Shown: positions 19,522-45,336 of the stretch, one piece after another
Layout: each line of letters begins with the position of its first letter
Position numbering within the stretch: the stretch's first letter is position 1
Translations under genes and position numbers: made by a program
The notes under the pieces: generated by a model
Databases searched by the model: none
Told to the model about the DNA's origin: nothing
What the model saw: only the letters and a program-made list of their open reading frames with translations
From: Cirrosporium novae-zelandiae
Taxonomy: Eukaryota
NCBI GenBank assembly: GCA_026023565.1
Contig: JAPETS010000022.1
Location: 310,001 to 374,000 of the forward strand
DNA length: 64,000 nt
Direction: 5' to 3'

Positions 19522-20280
19522 TTAACTAGCCGGCCGTAAAGCATAAAACCTAACCGGATACAGCTCTCTAGGAAACCCCTTCTGAAGCTCCGTCCTAACA
19601 ATCTCAAGCCCAGCCTGTTGAAAAATAGAACGGAATTTGGAATCTGCCCTGGTGACGCTGCTATCAAGTTCATCAAATATATCTGACCCGTCGGTGTTGG
19701 TGCTCATGTTTTCTTTGACGACGATCCAGCCATCTTCTTCTTGGGATACGGCATCGCGACACCGTTTTAGGTATTGGAGTAGTTGGGAGTCGGTTAGATG
19801 GCCTAGGCACCATTGGTTCCAGATCAAATCGTAAGTTTTAATGGGTTTCCAGTCCTCAAGACCCACGACATATATATCCCCAACCTTCTCCCCCTCCCCC
19901 CCTGCTTTCCCCCACCTCCTCACCTCCCCCACAAACTTCTCCACCGGCTCCACAACATCCACCACCTCCCCAACCTCCACCAAAAACCCCTTTGTAACCC
20001 GTCCAATCCCAGCCCCGCAATCCACAACCCGCTTTAGCTTCTTTCCCTTTCCCTTTCCACCATTTGTAGCACTCGTGGAAGTGGGCCAGCGACGTAGCTT
20101 GGCAAGAAAGTTTTTGGAGCCCTGGAGATCGACGCGGGAGATGTAGGGGTAGCCGCCTAGCATTCCGGATATGTTGGGGGGGATGGAGTTCCAGTAGGTT
20201 AGGGAGGCGGTGGGGGAGATTTGGGAGTCTGGTGGTGGTAGTGGAAGGGGGGGAGGGTGGTTGGATGATGATGATGACAT
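19522..20280 (-). CDS. NTM1: alpha-N-terminal protein methyltransferase 1 (NTM1/Tae1 family)
   Basis: GMLGGY..ISRVDLQGS, DCGAGIGRVT, YDLIWNQWCLGHLTD, VKEN, DSSVTR, FPRELYPV motifs; intronless. Confidence 0.93.
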   Translation of the reverse strand: MSSSSSNHPPPLPLPPPDSQISPTASLTYWNSIPPNISGMLGGYPYISRVDLQGSKNFLAKLRRWPTSTSATNGGKGKGKKLKRVVDCGAGIGRVTKGFLVEVGEVVDVVEPVEKFVGEVRRWGKAGGEGEKVGDIYVVGLEDWKPIKTYDLIWNQWCLGHLTDSQLLQYLKRCRDAVSQEEDGWIVVKENMSTNTDGSDIFDELDSSVTRADSKFRSIFQQAGLEIVRTELQKGFPRELYPVRFYALRPAS

Positions 20281-21267
20281 TGTAAGTTAGGAGGTAGGGC
20301 GTGGTGAAGGACCGAAGTTTTTTTTTCTGTTGGGATGTTGGATATTGGATGTTGGAAGGGCTGGGTTGGTTTTTTCGAGGGCGCGCGCTTCCAGTCTAGG
20401 GATCCCTTGAAGGGGAAAATGGTTGGTCAAAGCCAAGGCTAAGATTGTTGTTGTTGAGTAAACAATGATGATGTACTTTCGAAAGTATGGGTTATTGCGT
20501 TATCGGGATTTGCATTGTATTGTAAGCATATACCCCATTTGGGGTCGCCGGGGGGGGGAGGGTTGGATGGTTGGGATGAATATGGGCATTAGTAGATCAT
20601 ATCTATATCTTGCGATAAAAAGTTGTTAATTACTAGATATGTTAATAAGCCCTAGAAAAGGTAACGTTGAAGAAAGTACCTAAATACCTAGGTAGTTAAC
20701 CTAATAGGTTGGGTAGGTTAAGGTGGGGAGGGGTTCTAGGTTCTACAGCTTATTTTTTGAGGCTAAAATCCGATGAGGAGCCGAGAGAGAATCAACCTTT
20801 CCTCCAAACAGGCAACTCTATCCTTTTTCCCACGTGGCCATGATTTTTTATCCTTTTCAAAGACCGTTTTTTATCTTTTGATAAGGAAGAACTAATGGAA
20901 AACCTCCATTACCCCTCGGTAACTTGGTTGGGGTCCCTACCGATAACGAAATAATGACGTGGGGTTGACCTTCCTGAGTGCAATCTTGAGTCTACGTAGT
21001 AGAGTTACCCAAGGGATAAACCATGCGTATCTACAAAACTACCTCCACACTTGTTCCCCCCCCCTTGGACCTGGGCATGGGAGCATGGGAGTGGATAACC
21101 AACCAACCAACCCCCCCGTGCCCTCCTCAATTGTGTAAAACCCCATCTGTGCTATGTATGCTATGCCGCAATGCAACTTATTAATAAATACCTGCCGTGT
21201 TTGTGTATCTCTGTATCTCTGTATCTCTGTATCTACCACTCTCCCCTCTCCCCCACCCACCTTACAA

Positions 21268-23087
21268 ATGTTCTACTATTTTACCCGTCGCCCCTCTTCC
21301 ATTGTTTCTACTATTTCCAAAAACTTTCCATCTTCCTCCTCCTCACGTTTCCTCATCATCCATTCAAAAAGAAGATCTTTTGCGACCAACAACATGGCCA
21401 GCAGTGACTTGGTAGTAGAGCTTACAGCTCCCAATGGGCGGAAGATTAGTTTACCTACTGGACTTTTTATTAACAATGAGTTTGTTAAGTCCAAGTCGGG
21501 GGAGAAGATTACTAGTATCAATCCGAGGTATGATATGATATTCCTACAGTGTCTGGTTTTGGGTTGAATGCTAAGGTGGTTTCTTCTTTTCGCATAGCGA
21601 TGAGAGTGAGATAGCATCCGTGTATGCAGCAAGCGAAGAAGATGTCGACATTGCTGTTAAAGCTGCACGTGCGGCTTTCAGGAACCCCTCATGGCGGGAG
21701 ATGTCACCAACTGATCGAGGGAAGCTTATGATCAAGTTGTCGGAGTTGGTTGAAGAGCACAAGGAGACTTTGGCTACCCTTGAAACATGGGATAATGGTA
21801 AATTTAGGCTGACACCCTTGAACGGCATAAATGCTAATACATACTTTCGTTGACAGGGAAACCATACTCTGTTGCTTTGAACGAGGATCTTGGTGAAGTT
21901 TCTGGCACCATTAGATATTATGGTATTTTCCCTCTCTGGTGGCTCTCCCTGAATTGTAGGTTAACCTCTTTTTAGGTGGCTATGCGGATAAAATCCATGG
22001 CCAGGTAATTGATACCGGCAGTGCCAAGTTTGCATATACCATTCGGGAACCCCTGGGAGTCTGCGGTCAGATCATCCCCTGGAATTACCCTCTTGCCATG
22101 GCTGCATGGAAGCTTGGCCCAGCGCTTGCCTGTGGAAATACTGTTGTGATGAAGCCTGCCGAGCAGACACCCATCTCTATTCTCTACTTTGCGAAACTCA
22201 TCGTCGAAGCTGGTTTTCCTCCTGGTGTTGTCAACATCGTGAATGGTTTGGGCAGAAGTTGCGGTAATGCGATTGCAGCCCACCCCGATATTGATAAAGT
22301 CGCTTTCACTGGTTCTACGATTACAGGTCGTCAAGTTATGAAGACTGCATCTGGAACTATGAAAAATATTACTCTCGAGACAGGTGGAAAGTCACCTCTC
22401 CTTGTTTTTGAGGACTGTGATCTCGATCAAGCAGCTAAATGGGCTCACGTTGGCATAATGTCTAATCAAGGTCAGATATGCACGGCCACCTCTCGAATCT
22501 TAGTACAAGAGTCAATCTACGACGCCTTTGTTGAGAAATTCAAAGAAGTAGTCAAAAACATCAGCAAAGTTGGGGATCCATTCAAAGACGACACGTTCCA
22601 GGGACCCCAAGTCACAAAGGGTCAATATGAGCGCGTTCTCTCGTACATTGAATCTGGCAAGTCAGAAGGTGCGACATTGGCCCTTGGCGGAGAGCCAGTG
22701 AAAGATGTCAATGGCAAAGGTTTCTTTGTTTCCCCTACCGTCTTTACCAATGTCACCGACAACATGAAGATCTACAAAGAAGAGATCTTCGGGCCATTTG
22801 TTGTCATTGCTTCCTTTACCACAGAAGAGGATGCGCTTAGCCGTGCCAACGATACCACTTATGGATTAGGAAGTGCCATCTTCACAAAAGATATCGAGAG
22901 GGCTCATCGCGTAGCTAAGAACATCGAGGCTGGCATGGTGTGGATTAACAGCAGCAACGACAGCGATTTCAGGGTTCCATTTGGAGGCGTCAAGCAGAGT
23001 GGAATCGGTCGGGAGTTGGGTGAGGCAGGGCTTCAGGCATATTCCAACGTGAAAGCCGTCCACGTCAATTTGGGAACGAAGCTGTGA
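21268..23087 (+). CDS. aldehyde dehydrogenase (ALDH1/2 family), 4 exons; alternative in-frame start at 21394
   Basis: PTGLFINNEF, IIPWNYP, KPAEQTP, FTGST, LETGGKSP (catalytic Glu), NQGQICTA (catalytic Cys), EEIFGP, PFGGVKQSG. Confidence 0.96.
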
Positions 23088-23427: not shown

Positions 23428-24386
23428 ATGGCCCCAATCCGCCGCTACCTCCGCATTTCAAAACATTCCGTCCTTGAAACCCGTATATACCTTGACAACC
23501 CCGCCGATGCCTCCTCCCGCTGGCTATTAAACCCCCGAGACCCTGTCCTCCCCCGCGTCATCCAAAGCGTTCGGCCTCTGGTGCTTTCTAAATTGCGCGA
23601 GGAGAATGAACGAGAGTGGAATAGGACAAAGGGGAAAAAGGCAAAGGCAAAGGGGGTGAAGGATGTTGTTGTTCAAGGTGAATATTTAAATAATTATTGA
23701 GGTTGCTAATGTTTCCGTATGCATCTAATAAGATACATTAAATACAATATAGCTGGCTAACTTGTTCTGTATCTTTAGACGACTTTGAGGTTTCTATTTA
23801 TCTCACCGAGGAAAGCATGCGCCATTCCGTTCTCACACGTTTCAAGACCTTTGTGTCTGACCCTCGGAAGCTAAAAAGCAATTCCAACAAACTCACCGGT
23901 GATACCGAAGCTGACCCAATCGAACTGGGCGACACTGCTGTTCCTCCCGTTGTCTTGAGAGAAGAAAGCGATGACCATAGCGATGGGAGGGTCGCGCTTG
24001 AGGATATTCCTTTCGCAGTGCAGAGTAGTTCCGAGGAGCCGGAAGAAATGTTGAATCGCAGGAAAAGAAGACGCGGTGGTGCTGGGTCCGAAAGGCCTGA
24101 GGATACTGAAGCCTCGTCCGGGGATGAAGAGGACGAGGAAGATGACATTGCGCCCGTTTTCAAGAAAGCAAAAATGACTGGGCTTGACGGCGACGAAAAG
24201 AAAAAGGGGATGAAAACGATATATGACGGCTTCGCCATTTACGGGCGCATCCTTTGCCTCGTGGTTAAACGAACAGGTGGTAGCAGGTCAATAGGCGGAC
24301 CCGGCTCCTCGCAGGGGGGAGGAAAAGCAATGATGGAAGAGTGGATCACATCTACACAGGTTAATAAAGAGATTGGTAGGGAATGA
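23428..24386 (+). CDS. conserved fungal hypothetical protein, 2 exons
   Basis: Exon 1 MAPIRRYLRISKHSVLETRIYLDNP...VVVQ, then intron ~23678-23778, then DDFEVSIYLTEESMRHSVL...YDGFAIYGRILCLVVKR...MMEEWI. Reads as a widely conserved Pezizomycotina protein; function unknown. Confidence 0.8.
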
Positions 24387-25622: not shown

Positions 25623-27004
25623 ATGCAAGATTCCGGCTTCAAGACTACAATCCGTCATGGCCCATGCAAACGGATCCTCGCAACCCAAGGTAGCCCAGAC
25701 GGCCTTTTGATGGAGATGCCGCTATTAATATCGTCTAGACTTATGAGAATGATAAAACCCAAAGTCAACTTGAAAAAAATAACATCCCTAGCAACAATTA
25801 CGCTCCTTCCGATATCATAGTGTCCCTTCATCGACAAACTACACCTGATAGCTACTTGGACCTGCCTCTCTCTTTACAAATTCCATTAAAAAAACCAGGT
25901 GCTATCAATGGCTCAGACCCTCTTATATTTACGCACAATTCAACTTCAACTACATCAATTGTTACCGAAAACACAGTCCGTGAATCTTTTTTAAGCAGTG
26001 ATTCCACCATAGAGCTATTCAACCATACATCAGAAACCATCCCATTTGCTAAAAACTCGACCCTACAGCTAGACGAAATCGATACCGATATGTCTGAGAC
26101 ATCTTCATTACGGCATAATCCGGTTGCTGAAGCAGTTGCTGTCATGTTCTCAACCGCGAAACCTTCGGTCATTCATATTTCGAGACCTAGCGCCCCAGAG
26201 TCCCTTTCAGCTCCACACCCGGGTTTGTCTTTTCAAGAACGTACTAAACTTGAAGAGGACGACCGAAGTAGGGACCCGACCAAGAAACTGACAGCTTTAA
26301 ACGATATTGAAGATGTACCAGAGCTCCTAGAGATCACTAGTGACGAAGAAGATTCATCGCTGGAGCAAACAGAATTGAGTTTGATTTCTTCAACCTCGTG
26401 GACCAAAGATCTCGTCGTCACTGATTGTGGACGTATGATTAACGAGCCCCATGATAATCCTTTTATTTCACGCAGTAATGACAAAGAACCTCACACGGCC
26501 ATGGAATCAATTGAATCTTACCTGCTAGGCCTACAATATCCTTCCAACCCTCTAAATACTTTGACCGATCAGGACTCGAAAGAAGCACCTCTTATGCTTG
26601 CAGCGGCAGAATCGGCTGTCCGTCGGCGTCCTCATCCAAATCTACGAAAGGTACTTTCACTTCAACAGCAACAGCCACAACCACAATCATATCCACATCC
26701 ACATCCACAGCCACAAGTCTTATCACAACCCCCATTACAACACTCATCACAACTTCTATGCCAACCTCTATCACGACAATCTCAGATCACACCCCCAATC
26801 CCTCCCCGAAACCCCAACAGAGCCGAGGCTAGTCCCAAATCCAAATCCAAATCCAAAAACAAATTTAAATATAAACCTAAACCACCCAAACCACCCAAGA
26901 ACAAACCCGAACCCCACCCTCACCAACACTTTTCATCCATCCTTGGATTTTGGAAAATGAGAGAACAGGCAATCCCGTTTTCATTGTCTTGTCTTGATAA
27001 GTAG
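25623..27004 (+). CDS. hypothetical low-complexity Ser/Pro-rich protein
   Basis: 394-codon open frame. A GT at 25690 and an AG at 25819-25820 join the short ATG exon at 25623 in frame. No domain recognised; the 5' structure is uncertain. Confidence 0.5.
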
Positions 27005-28027: not shown

Positions 28028-28736
28028 ATGGATGACCATCAAACAAAATTATTAGAAGGCATCTCCGAGTTAGGACCTCTAGCTTAACAAAAGAAGGCCG
28101 ACTAATATGATACAGGCTTTTTAATAGCACCCAACATTCAGACCTAATCATCTATATCGGAAAGAAAGAATTGCCTGCTCATGCTTTGATCTTGGCCGCT
28201 CAAAGCGAGTTCTTCGAAAAGGCCTTGAAGCCTGGATTCAAGGAAGAAGAGACCAAGGTCTTTCGCTTTGAAACAGGAAGTGAGCATGCCTATTGGAGAG
28301 TTTTTAATTATTTATATACGGGAGACTACTCGGATGAACCATGTCAAGATCTAGAGGTTGACGGTAACCACACTTTATTCTCTGGTCATTACAGCTGAGG
28401 TTGATGATCAAAATAGATGATATCGAACTTCTCAAACACGTCCGAGTATATGAACTAGCGGACTTCTTCTTCATCGACAACCTGAAGGAACTTGTCCGCC
28501 AAAAATTCGAATCAAAGCTGCAAACCTGTTGGGTCAGCGAAACACTAGTTGATTGTATTTCGGAATTATACAGCACAACACCTTATGGGAAAGACAACGC
28601 GATAAAGCGAGTGGTATTAAGCATGGTTTACAAAAATATAAATGAGCTTTGGAGCAAACGGGCATTCAAAGACCTTGTACGAAGTAATGGCGATTTTGCT
28701 GCAGACCTTATTAATAAGGTAATAAGACTTAGATGA
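28028..28736 (+). CDS. stand-alone BTB/POZ domain protein, 3 exons
   Basis: LFNSTQHSDLIIYIG..LPAHALILAAQSEFFEKALKPGFKEEET...RVFNYLYTGDY, then HVRVYELADFFFIDNLKELV, the typical fungal BTB pattern. Confidence 0.88.
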
Positions 28737-29924: not shown

Positions 29925-32214
29925 TCACCATTCGTCGCTGTCGTTATCATAATCCCCTTCTGTTATATCGGTATATGACCGAGATCGTAGTATTGGTGAC
30001 GTCGATGGCCGCGGGATACCCGCCTCCATAGATCGGTTAGAGATTGTTAGCGAATTCAAGTTACTCGAATTCAAGGTAATGTGTTGCGAATCGTCCACCT
30101 GCTGCCTCAACTGTTTGGTGCTTATTCTAGGGATCGTCATGAGAACCTTAAACTTTGTCCTTAGCGAGTCGTCTTTCACGATGTACTGAAGCCAGCTGAT
30201 CACGGGTTTCAAGTCTTGGGAACTCTCAGGAAGGTATTTGTCGAAACAAGAAACGCTATCTACAACGCAGTATACTGTCGCTTCGGGTGGAAACTGACCG
30301 ACGAGGCGGTGCAACGCGTTGCAGAGATCGTCTAAGTTGTGATATTCCAGGCTATTTAAGTAGGTCCTCGAATTTATGAAGTCTAGACTCAAGAGCTCTC
30401 GTTCATGCAATGCCATCAAGAGTTGCACGATTAGAGATCGGACTAGCCCATTTGGTCCATACCAGGGGTCTGTGGAGGAGGTGTGCAAGCCGCAGAAAAA
30501 GTGCGTTAAGACTTCCTCAGGCTGTAGTTTGGCCATGCTCACCACAAAATTCGCGCAAAATAGCGACATGGCGGATATGTTGCTGAGAGCAGCAGACCGA
30601 ATGTTTCCATCGACGAGAAGCAGATCAGGGTGTTCTTGTCCCATCCATATAGAGAATCGGACCTGTTGCAGGATTGACTGCGCTTGTCCTTGTGACTTGA
30701 TGTCAAACTTCCCTTTCTGGACTAAAATAGACTCAAGGTCATCATTCGGGTGCAGAAGGATAGACTCAACGCCGGGGATTTTGCTCTGAGTGAAGACAGA
30801 TTGAGCAATGATCACAAGCAATCTATCTAGGTGCACAACTGCGGTCAACGCTCGATTCGTTCCACCAGTGTGCTGGCGCTCTGCATTAAGACATTGATTC
30901 AATTGTGCAATCTCGACTTCCTTTTCTGACAAGACATCAGTATATGTATGTTGAGTTTGCGTCAGAAGTCACCTACTCTTTCGGTCTTCACACAAAAGAT
31001 ATAGCAACTCATTCCTAGCTTTTAGAATGTCATCCATAAGAGCCTGAATGTTAGCCATTTCTCTCCGCCTCCCCCTTTGTTCTCGAATGAGGTCGATGAT
31101 TTCGTCATTTTGCTTTCCTTGCATTTTTATGTCCGCCCCGATATTTTCTATATTCAAATTACCCCGTCTTAAAAAATCGTGCACTTTACCAACCTTATCT
31201 TTGATTAAAACAACATTTGTATTAGTCTCTCTTGTGTTGATCTCAGTGTTCTTCAGATCCTGACGAATAATGCGGACTTGAGTATTGGTGTCTTCGGATA
31301 AATGCCGGGTGATCAAAATCTCTTTATCACGGCACTTATCTACGGTGCGCGCGAGTTCCTCGGCGCTGTCTTTCAGTCTTTCTAACACAGTGTCTGGATT
31401 CTCAGGCTGTTGTTTGATTTTGAACCTCGGAATTAGTCGACCCCCTTTTGCCAATGTTAGATCACTTCACGACATCTCGCTAGGTTTTCCCCACTCACAT
31501 TCCAAAGACTTTTTAGTGGGTAGAGACCGTAGAAGTTCTTCAATAGCGTCCACAACGGCAAAATATAGTCTGGTGGCACATTTGCTGACTTCTGGATCCG
31601 TTTGGAAGCTCTTCCTTTTAAGTTTCGCCGCACCTAGCGTATCGCGTATACCCTTAAATGTGGTGAGGATTTTCTGTCTTTTTTCTGCCGACTTTTCCGC
31701 CATCTGTACTGTATTAGCTGAATCATCTTGTGATCGACGGTCGCTGATTAACCTTTAATGTGACAGCAATCCCTGACTTAACGACAGCTAGTCCATAGCA
31801 GTCTGGTATGAGATCAATCCATGGGTTTATGACCTCATAATTCTTTCCAATTTTCAACCACAAATTTTTGAAGATTTCTCGAGCACTATCATCTTTGTCA
31901 TGATATTTTGTCTCTGCATTACAGACTTTGTCGAACAATGCGTCCCAAGAGCAGTCTGATAGCTTGATTCCAATGTTTGACGGTATATACTCTTTCAATG
32001 CCAGTTCTAGGTTCCTGTTGTCTTATGTCAATAAGGCATAGAAATCGAAAAGAAAAATTACCCACGTGTATGGCCTTGGGTGCTCAAACTGAGCCCGCTG
32101 GTCATCGAACTGCGATGAACCTCCAAAGCCTTCGTGAACTTTGAAGGCTTCTTCACTGACAAACTTGGCTGGCATAGTGATTTGAGCATCACCTTCCGAC
32201 AGTCCCTCTCTCAT
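29925..32214 (-). CDS. NLR-like protein: helical N-terminal domain (DUF7708/Goodbye-like), coiled coil, degenerate NACHT/NPHP3-N-like STAND domain without Walker A; 5 exons
   Basis: Consecutive minus ORFs joined by short GT-AG introns. N-terminal SWDALFDKV...PWIDLIPDCYGLAVVKSGI. C-terminal FSIWM...LLLVDG..., THFFCG, LVRSLIVQLL, VYCVVDSV, FKVLMT follow the NACHT layout but have no GKS/T. Confidence 0.75.
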
Positions 32215-33013
32215 TGCTTAGAAATGAACGTACACGGAGAAAATGCCTCATAAGTTGTAAGGCGAGCAGGATCGCGGAGTGGAAAAAAGCTGCAGGCTAG
32301 ATCAAATCAAGCAAAGATTTAGCAAAATGGATATCCTAAAGTCTTTTAGACAAGCATTTGCTGATGGCCGCAGTTCGTCGGACACTTCGGCTTGCCAACC
32401 AACAACTTTATCAGCAGACATCCTGTGCGCCTACCTTGTAGTGTGAAATTCTCGCAGCCTTACTCACGAAATTTTATTATCAACGAATCCACCGCCGAGA
32501 TGCTGAAGACGGTCGTATTACGAATTTGGGGATGCCAGCCATCATTACCTTGGCATGGATCTATTGGCTGGAAATTAGTTAGGATCATGGCGGGGAAGTA
32601 CAAAAATCGAATACGGAAAAGTAGTTCATTGTCATTTGTCGACGGCGTCGAATGCCTATCTTCAGCTCTCAAGCTATTATTGTCTGCTACCCGACCACAT
32701 ATCTCCCCAAATGGGAAAATACATAATGTTGAAACGCCATTCCTATTCGCGCTGGGATCAACGTTGAGACAGACCATCTCGGCCGCCCGATCCAATATAT
32801 ATTAGCCGAGTCAGCTCTACAGTGTAAGTGGGGAGCTATTTCGTTCTCCAGCCCGTCTATCAATCCCGAAACCATTTTGTCGTTTTGTCAATATTTTCAT
32901 GCTACTCAATTGCGGTGAATAGATTTCATATTTTCAAGCAGCTATCTAACTTATTTCTCTATCTTTAACAATAACCTTTAAATATTTCATCTCGAGAATA
33001 AACTATATACATA

Positions 33014-36000
33014 ATGGAGCCAGTTGTAAGTTGAGCATTTTCATTTAGAAGCTCTAGCTGATATCAGTACCCCAGCTTGTGTCCCCTCAAATCGATGAAA
33101 CTGTTCTGTCTGATAAGCTCATGACGCTCGAGACACAAGCTGAGATAACCGACATGCCTACACCACCTGAAGAAGGAACGGCGGGGGGAGGTGATGCGTC
33201 GAATACCTACGACGATGTAGACAAGGAAAAACCAGCCTCTGCAACACCGAATGCTGGCGCTCCTCGTGGTTTAGATGAAGGAAAGGACAGTCTTGATGAA
33301 GAGCCCGCGACTGAGAGCCTAGCCGATTCTAAAAATAATCGGAAGGATTCAGAGAAAGCGGAAAGCCAGGCACCAGAAGCTGCACCTGAAATTGATTACT
33401 GGGAAGAAAGATTAAAAAACCTTCCAAAGATTCCCGCGGTCAAGGAGATGAATTTCGAGCACTTTAAGAATCGCTATGGCGAGGATGACGGCCGACATAT
33501 CATTGAAGTCCTCAAAGCCGGTCAGAACACACTCGACGAAGTTAACGAGGAACGCCTCCGACGGAAAGGAAGGGGAAAGAGAAATAGCAAGGCAAAGGGG
33601 AACATTGGGTCTAGTAGCACCTGGATTCAGCGGGTTCGTATCCAGTCGGAGCCCGTTCTTTGCTATTTTCAGAATGTGGCGAAAGTCGATGGTTGGGATA
33701 CCGAACGGCCACGGACATTCTTTAGGCCCTTCAAAGCTTTTATCCATTTTCAGCCAAAGATGAGAGACGCACTTCGAATCCTTGAAGAGAGGTGGGGTGA
33801 GGCCGAGAATCTAGATTCTTTGGGCCTGAAGGAAAAAGCAGCAGCGGCAATAGAGCAAGTGGAGAAGAGGCTGAACGACAGACGTCTTGACAACGACGAC
33901 GACGACGACGAGAGTGATGTGCAGGAGGATGATATAAGATTCAGAGGCCCTAAGATGAATAGTATCACAGCGTTGAGACACATGCGATGTTATGTTGAGT
34001 TCATCGACAACAAGATCATGCCATTGTACGATCTATTCAAGGGGACATCACAGCGGAAAATTCAATTCAGCGACCTTTGGTTGCTGTTCAGGATAGGCGA
34101 GATTGTTTACTCATCACCAGTCTCCGATTCAGCTGAGCTCCAGGCCTCGAAGCGATCATCGCATACGAGGATGAATCAAGCAGCCTGGAAATTGTACCGC
34201 ATTAGCGACACATTGATCCACGAAGACTCTCCTGACGACCTCGAAAACGATGCGAGTATTTTACTTCTTGGTGGCTACTACATTGACTATGACGGTGATT
34301 CATATGGACCAATTAAGCACGAATTTCAGATTAATTTCTTCAAAGGTGAGAAGGATATTACGTCTCTTGAGTTGTACCCTATCCGCTTCGTCAAAGAGTC
34401 TCAGCAAATCCGCGACCGTCTCAGAACCCAAGGCGGTACTTTCCAATCCTTTGTCAAAGAAAACCACCTTTACTACGAAGGATGGACAATCACCAGTAGC
34501 CCAACCGGAGAGTTGTACAAAGATCTCAATAACCCCGAGCACATTGAAAGTAATGTGATTATCGACTTCATAGAAGGATTTAAGCACAATCCTTCTTGGA
34601 GGCCCCAATTCAAGGCTCCTTTTCTTTATGATTATGAGTGGCCAGCTGGAGATGACAACTTCTCCATCAAGCATTGGTCTGACATAAAAAGAACCAAACT
34701 GTTGCGAGAGATTATAGAAAAGACACAGTGCGGCGATGGTACCAATTCTCAGCGGATAAATGAAAATACGGAGAAAGACAAGTTCATCACTGCATACAAA
34801 GCTGGCAAAGCCACTCAACTTGGCGAAAATGATCTCATTCTTCTACCACGGCGTTTGGTAGCATACGCCCTTCGCGAGAGAAAGTTCGTTATAGTGGACA
34901 TCTTGTCTCTGCGAGCTATCGTTGCCCAGTCCAAGATTTTCAAAGACCTGAAAATTAACCCCGAGCACAAGCGCATGGTGAAGTCGCTGGTGCAAGCCCA
35001 TTTTAGAAAGCGGGAGATTCAGAAGAAACAATCTATTGTTGGGTTGAACCAGGATCTTATTCGAGGAAAAGGTTCAGGCTTGTTCATTCTATTACACGGT
35101 GTCCCCGGTGTGGGCAAAACAGCCACGGCCGAGGCAGTCGCTCAAGCCAACAAGAAGCCACTTTTTAATATAACTTGTAGTGATCTTGGCTTCACTGCGA
35201 AATATGTCGAGAATTCGCTTAACGATATCTTCCGACTGGCACATCTTTGGGACTGCGTGTTACTGCTTGACGAGGCTGACATCTTTCTGTCAAGGAGGGA
35301 GACATCGGATCTGAAGCGAAACGGTTTAGTCTCAGGTATGTAGCCTTTGGCTTTGTAATGGTGCTGTTAAGAAGTCTCTCGGTGTACTTTGTTTGTTCTT
35401 TTCTTTTCTTCAAATAGCTAGAGCGACCTCTGAATCTTAACTGACTATGCCGTAGTGTTCTTACGCGTTCTTGAATATTACAGCGGGATCCTCTTTCTCA
35501 CGACGAACAGAGTTGGAACACTTGATGAAGCGTTCAAATCCCGCATGCATGTTAGCTTGTACTACGAGCCGCTGAAGAGAAATCAAACCCTGGACATCTT
35601 TAAGGTCAATATAGATAAGCTAAGAGCTATAGAAAAGGAGAAGAAAGACCAAACAAAGGACACAGACCTGAAAGAGTCAGCTCTGGAAATTAAGGAGGAG
35701 AGTATCATAAATTATGCCGCATGGTATTACGATAATATGCGCAAAACTGCACGGTGGAATGGAAGACAGATCCGTAACGCCTTCCAAGTTGCATCATCGC
35801 TAGCCTACTATAGCTTGCGGAAGAACTCGCTAGAGGACTCGGACGAGGAAGAAGCGACTCCATTAGGGCAGGTGAAGGATGGAGAAACACACGGTTCCGC
35901 GCCAATTTTGGACTGGAGACAGTTTGATGTGGTGGCAGAGGCAATCGAGCGATTTGAGATGTACCTGCAGGAGGCGACTGGCGCAACAGACTTAGACGCA

Positions 36001-36513
36001 GCTCGAGTCGGCCAGCTTCGCGCTGACAACTTTGAATACAGATCGAGCCCTCGTCGGCCTAGATATCAGCCACCCACACCTACTCAAGGAGAGTCGGCTG
36101 TAATAAAGACTAGTCAAGTTAGCACTTATCGGCGCAGTCCTGGCCGGGGTACTCCTAAGCGTCAAGGCCGTGGCCAGGGCTGGGGACAGCCGCACAGTGG
36201 CGAGCAAGCTAGGCCTTCCAATCGGGGAAGATATCCCGGCAACTCAGCTTCGAGTCGAGGAGGAAGAATGGGTCCGCTCTCAGGCCCGCAGGCACAGAGC
36301 CGATGCTATCAGCCGCCACCGGATAGCACTCCTTCCAGGCGCCCGTTGAGACCAAGAATGAGTTCCGGCCACTCGGGGTGGAGTAATGAAGACGATGTTG
36401 AGTGGGAACAATCTCATTCACGAGGAGATATGGAGGAAATGGACGAGGAGGAGAATGGTGACTATTATGCTAATGAAGAGGAGTGTGCTGATGATTATAA
36501 TGAGGATTTTTAA
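33014..36513 (+). CDS. fungal AAA+ ATPase with DUF7025-type N-terminal region, 3 exons
   Basis: Micro-exon MEPV (33014-33025), intron to 33075. FSDLWLLFRIGEIV; Walker A GVPGVGKT; Walker B VLLLDEAD; intron ~35336-35455; sensor-1 LFLTTNR; Arg finger AFKSR; lid WNGRQIRN. Confidence 0.93.
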
Positions 36514-38216: not shown

Positions 38217-40323
38217 TCACCATGACGGGCTCCTCACAAGCGTGACAGAAGACCCGTTTCGATCCCTGAGGCCATAATAAGAACTAGTCGCACTAAGAGA
38301 CCCTTGAGATAAATCGTGGGAGGGTCTATATGAAGTTTGGGTTCTTTCGTGGTTTTGATAATTTGAAGCGGTGGATACGCTTTCTGGGGATTCGTTAGGC
38401 AGGCTCCTCTGTTTTTGGTGCGTCGATGCCTCTTCCGCATCGTCCTGCTGTGTGAGCGAGCGTAGGGGGATTTGGGACTCGTCCTTGTTGCACATGATCG
38501 CTAAGTTAGGGCGAAGGAGTTGCACATTTTCCTTCTCGGCTCTCTGTTTCATCTCGCTTACATAGTCTGTATCGCGTAAGATATCTGCGACGGCTAGGCC
38601 GCAGCTTAAAACGGCAATCGAGCTCGACTTCCATACCACGATGCCGGCTTTTCTTGTCTCGAGGACCGTGAGGACGAAGAATGCGGTTCCTGCCACTAGT
38701 AAAAAACATGGGAGTATGATCCATTGCCATTGAACGACGTAGAAGGCGATTATCCTGCCGGACCTGCCTGGAATCAGTGTGCTGTTGTCGGCGCCGTTCC
38801 GGATGGCGTTGCTCATGCTGACTGCAAGGGCGTGGAAGGTAGCGGTTAGATTGGAGCTTTGGTATATAGGTACAATGGAAACGGGGTAATAGTGAAAGCT
38901 TCCGTCGCTGCCTATGAAACCATTGACGTTGGAAATGAATTTTTCGTTGAATGCTAGAAGTCCTTGGAAATAGGAGCTTATGCCGTCGACGGCGGTTTGT
39001 GATATGTTGTAATTATTTCCGAGCATGAGGTCCGTTCTACTAATGGAGGAGAATGAGCCGTTGAACTCGAGGCTGGACTCATAGACTTCTAGAGATTTGT
39101 TGAATCTGAAACCGTTATCTTCGGTACTATATACAGCTTTCCATGAACCCGGTGCTCGACCGGCATTCATAACCTGTACGACCTTCTCCGAGAGTATGCT
39201 GTTCCGAACCGAAGGCTTGTATTCATTAACGCAGTAGTATAGTGCACACTCCGTCGCCTCAACCGGAAGATTTGGCCAGATAGAAGCCTCTGCAATGCTT
39301 TCTCTTATTTTTATTATAGTCATTGACCATACTAGAAGATCCATTGTCTGCAGGCTAATAGTCTCACTTGCATTTCTTGTGCCAAAGCTGGTCATATATA
39401 TGAAAGGTTTGTGATTATCAATATTGTTGATATAAAGACCATTTGGTAAGTTATATTCAGTAAGGTTTCCGGAGGGGATTTCCTCGAGATTAATGAATAT
39501 ATATTCCGGTATAGAATTATTCCCCATCTTCCTCCTAGTAAGACTTGTGGTCACGTTATTGCAAATACTACAAACAGCTAATGACCTAAATGCATCCCAT
39601 TCGCAGTTGTTAGATGGGCATCGAAAGGTTAGTTGTTGCGTCACTGAGTCGATCGGCTCAGCCAGGCCATACAGGACGGCAGATTGCATTGCAAAGTCTG
39701 AATGGGCTGATGCATAACGCCAAATACCAGGATAACGTGAATAATTATCGACGAAATATTTATTACCTTTGGAATAACGTCGAGCTTGGGCGATTCCCGT
39801 TAAATTATCGGGTTTGGAATACTCAAGTCGTGATTGGAGTTGAAGGAGCTGCTGGGCAAATGGGTCAAGACCGAGGGCCAAAATGGTAATTACAGCACCA
39901 ATCCAAGCGTATGCCCTTCACACCATCTGCATATTAGCTCATAAACATAAGAATGACTGAGCAAAAAGTGACTGACATTCCTCTGGTTCTCCACAACAGC
40001 TTCATACTTCCAAGTGGTCCTCGGCTTGAGCAATCAATGATATCCAAATCAATTAGCCGTTGTTGCCGCCGAGAAAACAGTATCCATTTCCACTGACTAA
40101 TACTTTCCACAACAGCCAGAACTAGGCAGGCTTTATAGGCTGTAGATAGCAGCGACACGATGGCGTTAAGTGTTACACCATACCAGTCAAATATGGGCCT
40201 GTTATTGAAATATTGTAGGAGGATAGCCATAGCAACTAGAGATAGGAAGCATCCAACTAAGGCAAGAGTTTCAAGGAGCCATCTATCTCCGATGGATTTT
40301 GTCTTAGGCTGAGATTGTACCAT
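38217..40323 (-). CDS. DUF3176-family membrane protein, 2 exons
   Basis: WLLETLAL...GVTLNAIVSLLS...ESISQWKW...SRGPLGS, then LGLDPFAQQLL, CPSNNCEWDAFRSLAVCSIC, ATECALYYCV, SMSNAIR, VQWQWIILP, WKSSSIA. ATG at 40323. Confidence 0.88.
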
Positions 40324-41369
40324 GTTTGAGGAATAGACAACAGACGAGGCAAATTTCAAGGTTGAAAAGACGTCGATGAGATAAGTGTTTTCTGGAAGCA
40401 CCGATTTAACTTGGTGGACATGAACGAAAGGAAGAAAGAGTAGAAAAATGTGAACAATAGACAAAAGTTTGGAGTAGAAGTTCTTTAATCATTATCTTCT
40501 CTTTGAGGGGTTCAGTTGTATGGGTTATACAGAAGACTTTGGGCATGCATAGTGTGGCTCTCGTCCAAGGCAATCTCAGAGGGTTCACAGCAGGTAACAG
40601 GCCAAGAATTCTATGTAGAAGCCCAAATTATGCATCGAATCAATTATTTCATTGAACAACCTGATAAAAAGGAAATAATAGCCGTCAAGTCCAGCCTCCT
40701 GGAGTGATATGCACTCCATGGACAACCGTCCACCAGTCTCCCTTAATATTGACCCATCAAGGATATTTTTTCCAGGACAATCTTATATTGTACGAAGGCT
40801 ACGCCACTATCGTGGTCGCTCATTGAGAAATAAGAATGTCCAGGAATGCCATACCTCGTTGAGGCAGCCATGGGTACTATTTAGTACGTAGCACAATTTC
40901 TTAACTATAAAAGCGAATAAAAGCGAATTCTACTGTATCACACGACGCAGACCAGTGTTTGACTCTTGCACTGAGAAGAAGTTGGGAGGGAGTCCTTTTC
41001 AATAAAGCTAGCTCGTGAGCGAGGGGTTGAGAGGGCCTAGATAAGCAGGTGCATATTAAAACTGTAGGAAGGATAACGAGAAAACAAGAATCTCTGTAAG
41101 AATCTCCTAGTCAAGGGTCTTACTGATTGGTGGTACTGTTGTTGATTGCTGAGCAAAGCTCAGCTGAGGGTCTCTATCTAAGGACGTGGCGCACGGGCCA
41201 TATAAGGCTAGAACCCCAGCGTTATAATCTAGTGACCGTATCACGACGTTTATATGCTTTTCTTAAAAGAATTATGTATGATTATCGTTGTAATAACATT
41301 GACGGTTAATGCAAAAAGAAAAAGAAAAAATTTCCCGCTCTAAAAAAAACAAAAAGATGAAATTCATTC

Positions 41370-43441: not shown

Positions 43442-45336
43442 TTAGTTAAGGATCTTCTTGCCAGCGGTCAAATCAACAAATGGAAGCTTTATGGAATCTT
43501 TAATGAATTCCAGTGCTTCTATCACCTTTTCATCATCATATCGTCTTCCAACTAGCTGCAATGAGATAGGGGCATCCCGGTATTTCTCAGGTTCGTCTAT
43601 GTGATGTCAGTCTGAATACTATTTGAATGTTCAAACCATGGGATGCTTACATAATTTATAGTTGAATTCGTCACTCTCGTTCATAGGCTTGTAGCCTTCT
43701 TCAACTTTGTCGATGGCTGGATCTACTTGGCTGACCGGGAATACAACAGCTGGGTAATCCAGGAGGTTCCATTGACTTGTGTAGCCCCAATACCTAGCCT
43801 GATCATGAGGGGGTGCCGCTCCAGGTCCAACTGGACAAATGATAACGTCCACCATTCCAGCGGGTTCGCCATCTAATCCTGTTTCTGAAGCTGTTTGGTT
43901 CCATACAGCGGCATACTCGGCTCTATAAGCGTCTCGTTGAATTGCCAACTTCCAGCTCCCTGGCATGGTTAGGTTTTTGCAGTTCTTGTTCTCTTTGATA
44001 ATGAAGTTTGAAAGTGGTCGCCACGGTTCTCCTGAGGCATCAATAGCCTCAGACTCTTGTTGTGCTCCATCAGGAAAGTAGAGGGCTGAGATGATATCCC
44101 ATGCCAAATCGTGTTTATAGGGCTTCCAGTCCACCACTTCTACACCAGGGACATTCTTTACCTTCTCGACAACTTCCCTGAGTGCCCTGATAATTGGAGG
44201 ATGTGGCTTAACAACACCATCATCCCAAAGTACGCCAATTTTCAGGCTCTTCTGGCCAGGAGGACCAAGGTAGCTTTCATCATCTTTCCAAGGCATGGGA
44301 AGTAATGATGGTTCGACCAACCAGGGTTTTGTCCCAAGCGCACTCCTCATAAACAGCTTAATACCTTCAAGGCTGGTGCTGAAAGGTCCAACCACCCCTA
44401 AAATAAGTTCTGCTCCAGCCATAGTTGCTATCCAGCCGTTGGTAGGTAATCTGGACGTTGATGGTCGGAATCCATACCTTACATATACTCAGTGATTAAG
44501 CAAAACCAAACTCTGAAAAACTTACACTCCGTTGTTTGCGGCTGGTCCTCTAATGCTCCCGCCAATGTCAGAACCAACTCCCATACATGAGCCCCGAAGG
44601 CCTAGCAATGCCCCTTCTCCCCCAGACGAACCACCAGAGGTCAAATTTCGATTAAATGGGTTGACAGTAACACCATAAAGATTATTGGAGGTTTCAAGAT
44701 GCATCTGGCTGCTCTTAGCCTTTATGATCAATTGGACTGGGGCCTTCAACTTACCAATGTTTGCGGCTCGGCTGTTCTCACGTAGAAGATACAGCCTGCC
44801 TTCCATAATAGCTTGAGAAGAAGAGCATCATCTTCAGCGATTTTATCCCACCAGCTACAAAACCCAGCATTCGTGCGCATCCCTTTCATGCCAAGATGCT
44901 CTTTGACGCTAATCGGTAGACCGTGCAATGGACCAATAATTCCATGGGTGACAAAGTATTCATCGAGGAATCGTGCGCGTTCAAGAGCACGTTCTGGTAA
45001 AAGTTCCGTCACACAATTGGTCTACCAAATCTTCAAGTTAGGAATCGAGGATAACTGTCAACGGTGGGGACCTACAAGCTTTGAGGCGACACCTGCTCGG
45101 CGCAGGAAAGCATTTGCAACATCTACACTTTTCAGTTTTCCAGAATGAATACGTGAGAGAAGCTCCTCAGGAAGGCTTTCGGTTATGTCGATTTCCTCTG
45201 CTGTCAAAACCTCCTTTGGGATTCCGGTCACGTTGAGAGGTAATTCAGAAGGGACATCAGGAATTGGAGGCTTGACTTGAGCAAAAGTTTCTTCACGATA
45301 TTTCTGCGCTTTCTGCGCGACTTCTTGCCAGGTCAT
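43442..45336 (-). CDS. amidase-signature family protein (acetamidase/general amidase-like), ~6 exons
   Basis: GPLHGLPISVKE (catalytic Lys), GGSSGGEGA, GSDIGGSIRGPAA (catalytic Ser), YTSQWNLLDYP, terminal PISLQLVGRRYDDEK...ILN*. Confidence 0.94.

Follow-up and report, generated by a model that had tools for sequence, protein, structure and literature searches.

Two large genes of Cirrosporium novae-zelandiae lie head to head in the stretch of DNA that was analysed (the window; 64,000 nucleotides of contig JAPETS010000022.1). One encodes a protein that resembles a fungal NOD-like receptor (NLR) with no P-loop, the other an AAA+ ATPase with its motifs in place. The question raised by this locus is whether the two genes belong together and, if so, what the ATPase does for its partner. 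The gene models are as follows.

Left gene (P0001), 29925-32214, minus strand: five exons, 694 amino acids, 100% identical to P0001
Left-gene exons, minus strand: 32214-32065, 32013-31753, 31703-31500, 31442-30978 and 30923-29928, plus split codons at the junctions
Intergenic region, 32215-33013, no strand: 799 bp separating the two start codons
Right gene (P0023), 33014-36513, plus strand: three exons, 1109 amino acids, DUF7025 AAA+ ATPase, 100% identical to P0023
Right-gene exons, plus strand: 33014-33025, 33076-35334 and 35455-36510

The annotated proteins P0001 and P0023 agree with the window in every letter, and neither gene has an internal stop after intron removal, as an earlier note made from the letters alone had stated. 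The divergent arrangement described in that note, with starts about 800 bp apart, was also recovered: the ATG of the left gene is at 32214 (minus strand) and that of the right gene at 33014 (plus strand), with 799 bp between them. All of the motifs that it had quoted for the two proteins are present in stop-to-stop translations. The intergenic region is presumed to be a shared bidirectional promoter. The median gap between the paired genes in related loci is roughly 1 kb, and comparison of their intergenic regions revealed no conserved motif. Seven- and eight-mers of the GGCTGA type were enriched between the genes, but they were rejected as a promoter motif because their context resembles that of intron branch sites, without an extended consensus.

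The right protein was divided into the following parts.

33382-35043, plus strand: family-specific folded N-region, residues 107-660, with DUF7025 at 34045-34392
35071-36018, plus strand: AAA+ module and lid, residues 670-945, including an intron at about 35335-35454
35098-35121 and 35260-35280, plus strand: Walker A and Walker B, respectively
36019-36510, plus strand: disordered low-complexity tail, residues 946-1109, rich in P, R, G, S and D, with an acidic-aromatic end

Its Pfam matches were PF22942 (DUF7025; E 2e-22) in the N-region, PF00004 (E 6.5e-13) and PF23232 (E 8.2e-10), and the closest relatives carry the same three domains; AAA_5 was reached at E 0.017 only. The motifs GVPGVGKT, LLLDEAD, TTNR, AFKSR and WNGRQIRN are present and show little or no variation among 35 relatives, which bears out the complete AAA+ module claimed earlier. 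The residues G679, K685, T686, D736, E737, N775 and R787, which cover Walker A and B, sensor 1 and the arginine positions, do not vary among 35 sequences. Sequence matches in the PDB were to Rix7 (3e-14), VAT, Afg2, Msp1 and spastin, and the AAA+ model was matched to p97 D1 with a Z score of 15.3. These structure matches cover the AAA domain and not the N-region with DUF7025, for which the pLDDT was mostly 80-95. Sequence and model together thus point to a classical-clade AAA+ enzyme rather than a MoxR protein, with Walker A, Walker B (DE), a sensor-1 Asn, an arginine finger and a lid.

The mode of action is less easily deduced. The pore-loop-1 consensus of the family is GDLGFTPxxVE, and the position of F710 is hydrophobic in 35 of 35 relatives, while in 25 of them Tyr714 of the window protein is replaced by Glu or Asp. 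The aromatic residue usual in this loop is thus not clearly conserved, and a threading or unfolding mode is therefore not assured. The tail, whose composition was compared over 35 relatives, had a pLDDT of about 30.

For the left protein, the following parts were assigned from profiles and the AlphaFold2 model.

31416-32214 including introns, minus strand: helical N-domain resembling Goodbye / DUF7708 / NACHT_N domains, residues 1-215
30870-31397, minus strand: predicted antiparallel coiled-coil hairpin, residues 222-380, with helices at 222-294 and 316-380
30015-30830, minus strand: pseudo-NACHT (NPHP3_N-type) nucleotide-binding core, residues 394-665
30564-30611, minus strand: Walker A position, residues 467-482, reading DGNIRSAALSNISAMS, between strand 1 and helix 1
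30240-30272, minus strand: Walker B-like strand, residues 580-590, YCVVDSVSCFD

The C-terminal domain was modelled with a pLDDT above 94. VIA-align matched it to ORC4 (Z 11.8, rmsd 3.2, 160 residues aligned), Cdc6/Orc1 (Z 11.7), Avs3 (Z 11.5), the AAA-like domain of Sir3 (Z 10.3), CED-4 (Z 8.9) and Apaf-1 (Z 8.6), with the matches spanning about 160-190 residues. Foldseek with the whole left model gave weaker results, the best at E 2.8e-3 and all above E 1e-3. The predicted fold is that of the P-loop NTPase alpha/beta core of STAND/AAA+ type. A Pfam search of the window protein and its last exon returned no family, both falling below the NPHP3_N and NACHT thresholds, while relatives at E 1e-46 to 1e-26 match NPHP3_N above the cut-off. 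This family was reached by 34/57 and 16/24 relatives in two sets, with a best E of 1e-14, and the domain is accordingly assigned by sequence to the NACHT/NPHP3_N family through clear relatives. The STAND fold proposed in the earlier note is thus supported from both sides.

In the AlphaFold2 model, the loop replacing Walker A, from the strand at 462-467 to the helix at 480-495, comprises 12 residues and contains a helical turn. The pattern GxxxxGK[ST] was found in 0 of 165 relatives and in 0 of 49 metagenomic copies, and the loss of the P-loop is therefore family-wide and not private to this genome, as the proposal of the earlier note required. In a subset of relatives, where the loop is about three residues longer, a vestigial G-[KR]-[TI]-S occupies the site of the former Walker A. 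At this site 35/57 members have a basic residue, and 12/57 have Gly plus a basic residue. Some contact with phosphate or nucleotide may persist in the relatives that keep this vestige, and the domain's ancestor may not have been wholly blind to nucleotides. The description "catalytically dead" in the earlier note fits the window protein but may not hold for that subset. In the Walker B-like strand, D584 is kept in 54/57 members. It has no acidic residue directly after it, where the canonical motif has hhhhD followed by acidic residues; the next one lies six positions on (590) and is acidic in 51/57.

The model ends with a strand at 643-645, a short helix and a disordered tail. The protein stops about 30 residues past the last core strand and so has no repeat domain, as had been noticed before. 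A winged-helix/HETHS domain and sensor repeats after the core are absent from the model, and no Pfam repeat family was matched. No sensor domain is recognisable in the module.

Helices of the N-domain were placed at residues 7-197 by the AlphaFold2 secondary structure. The nearest Atlas clusters in a feature search were Goodbye/DUF7708 (score 0.93), and two relatives are named as Goodbye-domain proteins in UniRef. Pfam DUF7708 matched 8/57 family members (best E 3.6e-6), the window protein itself giving no match. The passages of Wojciechowski et al. (PMC9815663) on these domains describe a helical core common to HeLo/MLKL bundles and Goodbye-like domains, and state that the latter have yet to be proven to cause cell death. 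When left-family profiles were searched against PDB sequences, they matched coiled-coil chains only, or nothing meaningful. As part of the best explanation, the left protein is deduced from sequence and model to be derived from a fungal NLR, having probably acquired a hairpin of coiled coil some 150 residues long.

Whether the two genes belong together was addressed in a metagenome scan anchored on AAA+ genes close to the one in the window. Of 348, the best 80 were used, and these yielded 80 loci that fall into 58 clusters; linkage was counted in the 35 dereplicated clusters for which 2 kb or more of upstream sequence was present. A left-family gene was found upstream of the AAA+ gene in 34 of the 35, and every left-family match was on the opposite strand. 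Consecutive locus tags or accessions for both proteins were found in 21 named species from five classes. Recurrence in 34/35 independent loci and in 21 named species shows that the juxtaposition is not due to chance, one of the points on which the earlier note had made its proposal depend. No third conserved gene recurs in the 35 loci, the other recurrent ORF groups being antisense frames inside the AAA+ gene. A metagenome pattern scan with the left-family subset A2 matched 284 stretches, none of them encoding a relative. The two genes make up an ancient module of Pezizomycotina that is divergently transcribed and nearly obligate, and this forms part of the best explanation.

The carriers of the pair, among named matches, are filamentous ascomycetes only. 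This distribution would suit a housekeeping function, in which a chaperone specific to the lineage shares one promoter with its client or adaptor and the two serve hyphal cell biology (for instance membrane, organelle or septal remodelling) with no role in conflict, and the strong purifying selection on the AAA+ motifs would suit it as well. The size of the left family (1268 clusters at 50% identity, E up to 1e-3) speaks against such a function, as does an N-domain resembling those that elsewhere mark NLR effectors. Furthermore, A. flavus and A. oryzae are absent from both 90%-identity protein clusters although sister species are present.

Near-obligate adjacency would also be expected if the left protein were constitutively harmful and the AAA+ protein its antidote, in a linked selfish unit with no host-defence role that selection against separation keeps tight. 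Two apparent orphans were found, both being AAA+ genes lacking a left partner, as expected if the toxin were lost first. The first is the L057-59 cluster of the metagenome. The second, in A. minisclerotigenes, is deduced from accession order alone: the AAA+ accession directly precedes that of a calcium-binding protein gene which, in A. parasiticus, is located on the far side of the left gene. The asymmetry was, however, seen from the AAA+-anchored side only, and the surroundings of the pair within the window showed neither transposon nor driver features.

Trees of the left and right proteins from 12 pairs have all supported clades in common, the congruence that the first reading had put forward for examination. 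Both depart from the species tree in grouping Venustampulla with Arthrobotrys. Both also place Cercophora with Purpureocillium and Cladobotryum and apart from Parathielavia and Chaetomidium. The Sordariales hold two separate lineages of the pair. Left and right distances were correlated (Mantel r 0.735, with 0/5000 permutations as high), and the nearest neighbour was identical in the two matrices for 22/35 pairs; shared species history accounts for part of this co-divergence signal. At two loci, L002 and L075, the pair is about 89% identical in nucleotides, but the flanks are not shared. Duplication or relocation as a unit and groupings that depart from the species tree are both compatible with a toxin and its antidote, an explanation that we nevertheless regard as improbable. 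The same departures and the two Sordariales lineages count against a housekeeping pair.

Three close locus pairs differed by 0.1-3.4% over the gene pair, equal to or below the divergence of the flanks. Such low divergence is again what a housekeeping pair would show, and on balance we consider that function hardly probable. It also bears on allorecognition (heterokaryon incompatibility), the reading proposed in the earlier note, by which allelic variants of one or both genes would kill when unlike strains fuse. Two-gene loci for cell death that are related to NLRs occur in fungi, according to the accounts cited below. The three comparisons, a small sample, revealed no excess divergence over the pair and no idiomorph-like alleles, and there were no hypervariable repeats in the pair. 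Allorecognition is thus weakly disfavoured by these data and appears very improbable overall.

The observed domain architecture, family-wide loss of the P-loop, intact AAA+ enzyme, head-to-head linkage and co-divergence are best explained overall, we believe with moderate confidence, by a model in which a separate AAA+ ATPase governs the assembly of an NLR-derived effector. We infer from these data that the two proteins make physical contact, in which direction control runs and that the output is cell death. The AAA+ hexamer would be the sole NTPase of the module, acting on its cognate left protein and using ATP to control the oligomeric state of the latter. In the favoured version it would hold the left protein disassembled or reset it, as Vps4, NSF, p97 and Msp1 do with their substrates. 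If this control lapsed, the pseudo-nucleotide-binding domain and the coiled coil could self-associate, clustering the Goodbye-like domains, which might then act at membranes to bring about regulated cell death or defence. A complex prediction with AAA+ residues 107-660 and left residues 385-694, run without alignments, scored 0.24 against a mark of 0.34, which speaks neither for nor against binding.

The direction of control could also be the reverse. In that case the AAA+ protein would be the sensor or switch and, once triggered, would spend ATP to load or assemble the pseudo-NLR into an active oligomer, much as MoxR AAA+ chaperones license the inactive-STAND components of bacterial ternary conflict systems. 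The architecture and linkage data fit this equally well and do not discriminate the direction of control. The large, moderately conserved N-region of the AAA+ protein and its variable tail could do the sensing. The solved classical-clade AAA+ enzymes, however, mostly disassemble assemblies. Bacterial precedent exists for inactive STAND modules with a separate AAA+ enzyme, as the earlier note had stated, in two surveys (PMC7159879 and PMC8195603), where the partner is a MoxR protein. The AAA+ enzyme of the present pair is of the classical clade rather than MoxR, and no vWA or other third component is conserved with it. Activation by the ATPase is therefore considered possible but rather unlikely, and control of the effector by disassembly or resetting is retained as the favoured reading.

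The conserved linkage of the pseudo-NLR and AAA+ genes is new here. No published description of the gene pair was found in a search outside of which lay subscription journals and bioRxiv supplements, and the literature searched contained no papers on DUF7025, PF22942, PF23232 or six of the locus tags. NLR censuses that require GxxxxGK[ST], for example PMC13449251, exclude the left family by design. Repertoires counted with such a filter thus leave a family of more than 1000 clusters at 50% identity invisible. We tentatively suggest that these pairs are widespread, unrecognised NLR-derived immune or cell-death modules of ascomycetes, missed by Walker A-requiring censuses, in which the nucleotide switch has moved into a co-inherited AAA+ enzyme, and a eukaryotic counterpart, convergent or related, of the bacterial inactive-STAND and AAA+ systems. 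The near-obligate pairing with an intact AAA+ enzyme suggests that a separate ATPase could power or police oligomerisation-driven signalling. Should the module control cell death, it would represent a new logic in fungal immunity with a parallel in bacterial inactive-STAND systems, and a first function would be assigned to the DUF7025 AAA+ proteins.

Among known systems, the closest to the left protein are the fungal NLRs that combine Goodbye and NACHT domains, which have an N-domain resembling its own in the parts of Dyrka et al. (2014, PMC4986451) and Wojciechowski et al. (2022, PMC9815663) dealing with them. The nucleotide-binding core is homologous through the NPHP3_N matches, and the layout F..W, hhhhD, HFFCG and RSLI.QL is common to both. 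Unlike these receptors, the left protein lacks Walker A, a winged-helix/HETHS domain and a WD40, ANK or TPR sensor, carries the coiled-coil insertion of about 150 residues, and has an AAA+ gene as its constant partner in the AAA+-anchored census.

The prokaryotic ternary conflict systems of iSTAND or iSTAND2, MoxR and vWA, as far as the sections of Kaur et al. (2020, PMC7159879; 2021, PMC8195603) that treat them go, likewise place an inactive STAND protein with an N-terminal signalling or effector domain beside a separate, active AAA+ enzyme. The fungal AAA+ protein differs in belonging to the classical clade, and neither vWA nor any third gene was found in the 35 loci. The fungal pair is eukaryotic, intron-containing and divergently transcribed, and the two systems are likened by architecture and not by homology. 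In the two-gene fungal cell-death clusters HET-S/NWD2 and gasdermin/protease, a putative executioner and its controller likewise lie side by side and are co-inherited; control in the excerpts of these reports (PMC3321046, PMC4344463, PMC8851545) lies with a complete NLR or with a protease, and the signal passes by amyloid templating or cleavage. In the present pair, by contrast, the NLR-like protein bears the effector domain and the controller would be an AAA+ enzyme.

Classical AAA+ disassembly enzymes act on helical or membrane substrates, as in Vps4/ESCRT-III, NSF/SNARE, Msp1/ATAD1 and p97. The AAA+ core of the right protein is of the same clade, and its presumed partner resembles theirs in having a long helical hairpin, together with an acidic-aromatic C-terminal tail. 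Its N-region with DUF7025 is, unlike theirs, family-specific, the pore-loop-1 aromatic is not clearly conserved, and the substrate is putative. Although the inactive AAA+-like modules of ORC subunits and Sir3 are unrelated in sequence family and biology, the resemblance being one of fold only (Z about 10-12, 8-14% identity), they too retain the fold without catalysis as a module for assembly and interaction.

Stop-to-stop translation and the raw sequence of the window revealed two genes that diverge and carry introns. By word-index search, their exons were matched at 100% identity to two annotated proteins of Cirrosporium novae-zelandiae (class Xylobotryomycetes according to NCBI): P0001 (694 aa), the left protein, and P0023 (1109 aa), the AAA+ ATPase. 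The locus tags of the two adjoin (M1834_003629 and M1834_003630). The gene models below were obtained by mapping both proteins back onto the window.

The gene pair and its neighbours in the window
19522-20286, minus strand: N-terminal proline methyltransferase (PF05891, E 1e-73)
21960-23087, plus strand: aldehyde dehydrogenase (E 2e-153)
32214 down to 29928, stop codon 29925-29927, minus strand: left gene, five exons
33014-36510, stop codon 36511-36513, plus strand: AAA+ gene, three exons
39934-40488, minus strand: DUF3176 membrane protein
43631-44488, minus strand: amidase

The start codons at 32214 and 33014 are separated by 799 bp. All motifs quoted in the earlier note for this divergent pair were found in the window, and its statement that both genes lack internal stops was confirmed by the mapping. 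The genes flanking the pair were ordinary, and the ORFs at 23742-24386, 25739-27004, 28368-28736, and 38217-39917 matched no Pfam family.

The left protein itself had zero Pfam matches, and its assignment was deduced from its relatives and its predicted structure. NPHP3_N scored above the curated Pfam cutoff in 34 of 57 full-length relatives (best E 1e-14) and in 16 of 24 C-domain ORFs of the family. According to a 2025 preprint (10.1101/2025.09.29.679196), most fungal NACHT proteins are now filed under NPHP3_N by InterProScan. In the AlphaFold2 model, built from an alignment of 57 sequences (mean pLDDT 81.9), helices make up the N-domain at residues 7-197, residues 222-294 and 316-380 pair as an antiparallel coiled-coil hairpin, and an alpha/beta domain spans about 394-665 (pLDDT >94). 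In an exhaustive structural comparison, residues from about 417 to 653 matched cores of the initiator-clade AAA+ and STAND types, including ORC4 (Z 11.8, rmsd 3.2, 160 residues), archaeal Cdc6/Orc1 (Z 11.7), Avs3 (Z 11.5), the catalytically inert AAA-like domain of Sir3 (Z 10.3), CED-4 (Z 8.9), and Apaf-1 (Z 8.6); Foldseek with the whole model was weaker (best E 2.8e-3). For the N-domain, the Atlas feature search found a resemblance (score 0.93) to clusters of the Goodbye/DUF7708/NACHT_N type, and Pfam matched DUF7708 in 8 of the 57 relatives. Neither a winged helix nor repeats followed the core in the window protein. The left protein is NLR derived, retaining an effector-type domain and the oligomerization core, with no nucleotide switch or sensor of its own. 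A full HMMER search of 1.84 billion representatives showed this to be a large family, with 1268 clusters at E ≤1e-3 and 628 at E ≤1e-10.

The place of Walker A is taken by a loop of 12 residues that includes a helical turn (GNIRSAALSNIS) and lies in the AlphaFold2 model between the strand 462-467 (DLLLVD) and the helix 480-495. The motif GxxxxGK[ST] was found in 0 of 165 fetched relatives and 0 of 49 metagenomic C-domain ORFs, so the loss of the P-loop is a family trait and not private decay of the window copy. In a subset of the family, G-[KR]-[TI]-S is retained where Lys-Ser/Thr formerly stood, in a loop about 3 residues longer than a true P-loop; several metagenomic copies, for example, read ...FGKTSPIS.... 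A basic residue occupied this position in 35 of 57 members, accompanied by glycine in 12 of the 57. In P0001 it corresponds to residues 476-479 (window 30573-30584, minus strand), where the window's clade reads SNIS and even this vestige has been lost. Other NACHT landmarks are strongly conserved in the family, namely, F452, W455, the strand aspartate D467, H509, G518-P519, R524, Q529, D584, and K621, and C506 is invariant. Canonical nucleotide binding is unlikely for this domain, and the conservation of its landmarks under these circumstances suggests a putative protein-protein interface.

The right protein is an intact AAA+ ATPase. Pfam identified DUF7025 (E 2e-22), AAA (6.5e-13), and the fungal AAA lid (8.2e-10), and the Walker A, Walker B, sensor-1, and arginine positions were invariant among 35 relatives. 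The closest solved relatives were Rix7 (3e-14), VAT, Afg2, Msp1, and spastin by sequence and p97, the proteasomal Rpt subunits, NVL, Pex1/6, and FtsH by structure, all of which are classical-clade enzymes. In the predicted structure, residues 1-106 are disordered, 107-660 form a folded N-region, and 670-945 form the AAA module; the tail is again disordered. Pore-loop-1 is unusual, with the consensus GDLGFTPxxVE, and the tyrosine of the window protein is replaced by Glu or Asp in most relatives. The tail beyond the folded part (window 36019-36510, plus strand) is of low complexity and is 100-260 residues long in 33 of the 35 relatives; across these 35, it contains about 10% each of P, R, G, S, and D and 0-12 RG/GR dipeptides. 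These data, together with the STAND/AAA+-type fold matches and the NPHP3_N matches of the left family, bear out the structural reading of both genes in the earlier note. Acidic-aromatic C termini were common in both partners, many relatives having D/E-rich ends that include W, Y, or F. The last residues in the window are ...DNDSDEW for the left protein (29928-29990, minus strand) and ...DDYNEDF for the AAA+ (36450-36510, plus strand). These ends may represent a common docking or engagement motif.

The main new result is the conserved linkage of the two genes. When metagenome DNA was scanned with the AAA+ alignment, 598 stretches matched the pattern and 348 of them proved to be relatives; the 80 best loci were retained with flanks of up to 10 kb, and HMMs for the left C-domain and N-domain were run against all their six-frame ORFs. 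Dereplication of the AAA+ matches of these 80 at 90% nucleotide identity gave 58 clusters. In this sample, whose anchoring AAA+ genes share 30-50% identity with that of the window, a left-family gene was present upstream in 34 of the 35 clusters having at least 2 kb of DNA before the estimated AAA+ start. Every left-family match was upstream of the AAA+ gene and on the opposite strand, with its N-domain nearer to it, and the arrangement is therefore always head-to-head. The median gap was roughly 1 kb; in L079 (5223-9083) and L080, two of the metagenome loci, about 3.9 kb separated the left gene from the AAA+ match, compared to about 1 kb elsewhere. The sole partnerless cluster of the 35 (L057-L059; L058:6232-8085, plus strand) had a plus-strand gene upstream instead, represented by a 617-aa ORF with apparent membrane helices and glycosyltransferase-like motifs, a putative glycosyltransferase. 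The other 23 clusters had <2 kb of upstream DNA, too little for a judgment, and 1 of these carried a left N-domain at the contig edge. No further gene family recurred around the pair in the metagenome loci. GGCTGA-type 7- and 8-mers were enriched between the two genes (33 loci plus the window), with AGGCTGA in 16 of 34 intergenic regions and 2 of 24 controls; these words were rejected as a promoter element, since in context they resemble branch sites of short 5' introns.

In named genomes, adjacency was read from the order of locus tags or accession numbers, which GenBank assigns serially to the proteins of a record, and not from DNA. On this basis, the two proteins were consecutive in 21 species. 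Locus tags were consecutive in Cirrosporium, two Arthrobotrys species, Venustampulla, and Purpureocillium; tags or accessions were consecutive in Parathielavia, Chaetomidium, and the Aspergillus species A. heteromorphus, A. japonicus, A. indologenus, A. violaceofuscus, A. uvarum, A. homomorphus, A. fijiensis, A. brunneoviolaceus, A. aculeatinus, A. aculeatus, A. sergii, A. parasiticus, A. novoparasiticus, and A. arachidicola. The link was looser in Cladobotryum (tags two apart) and also in three cases in which both proteins came from contigs of equal length, namely, Cercophora, a second strain of A. parasiticus, and one Logan contig. The pair is co-inherited near-obligately, from a common upstream region, and the linkage predicted in the earlier note proved far stronger than could be known from the window. 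In A. parasiticus, the order is AAA+ (RU639_006100), left gene (006101), and a 92-aa calcium-binding protein (006102). The AAA+ accession of A. minisclerotigenes (section Flavi) is followed directly by that of the 92-aa calcium-binding protein, so the left gene is apparently absent or unannotated in this species. Oddly, the 92-aa proteins are also listed in the left protein's cluster at 90% identity, and neither protein's cluster at this level had a member from A. flavus or A. oryzae.

The two families also diverged together. All supported clades were common to the left and right maximum-likelihood trees of 12 named pairs. Venustampulla (Leotiomycetes) grouped with Arthrobotrys (Orbiliomycetes; support 87/93 for the left protein and 99/97 for the right), and Cercophora (Sordariales) grouped with Purpureocillium and Cladobotryum (100/100 in both), apart in both trees from Parathielavia and Chaetomidium, which, like Cercophora, are Sordariales. 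Both groupings depart from the species classification, and since these departures are shared by the two trees, they indicate that the pair duplicates or moves as a unit. Across 35 pairs, pairwise distances between left C-domains correlated with those between AAA+ N-regions (Mantel r 0.735), a value reached by 0 of 5000 permutations (highest, 0.348), and the nearest neighbor was identical in both matrices for 22 of the 35; species history common to both families adds to this signal. In line with movement or duplication as a unit, the pair in L002 (6618-13174) was about 89% identical in nucleotides to that in L075, and the flanks aligned on neither side, placing the pair in different genomic contexts. 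The role in allorecognition raised in the earlier note was weakly disfavored, as divergence of the pair among three pairs of closely related loci was 0.1-3.4% and not above that of the flanks.

The AAA+ would supply an NTP-dependent step for its left partner, and control by disassembly or restraint is the favored direction. The AAA+ clade to which the window protein belongs comprises enzymes that dismantle helical and membrane assemblies, and the left partner offers an extended coiled-coil hairpin together with its acidic-aromatic C terminus; disassembly or restraint is preferred because of this clade membership and these features. The opposite direction, in which the AAA+ would act as the activator of the left protein, was considered nearly as likely. 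The output may be cell death or defense, as judged solely from the Goodbye-like domain. According to PMC9815663, this domain has a helical core in common with HeLo/MLKL bundles, its own activity being unproven.

A literature search, with subscription journals and preprint supplements outside its scope, found no description of the pair and no paper on DUF7025. In a recent census, GxxxxGK[ST] is required for a protein to count as an NLR (PMC13449251), and a census of this kind would leave out the left family. By descent, the closest relatives of the left protein are the Goodbye-NACHT fungal NLRs, from which it differs in lacking Walker A, the winged helix, and the sensor repeats, three features that define NLRs. 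The closest analogy to the pair is provided by the bacterial ternary systems of an inactive STAND with MoxR-vWA (PMC7159879 and PMC8195603), although the AAA+ of the pair is of another clade and there is no third component. In kind, the pair is comparable to NLR-related two-gene modules or to systems that combine an inactive STAND with an AAA+.
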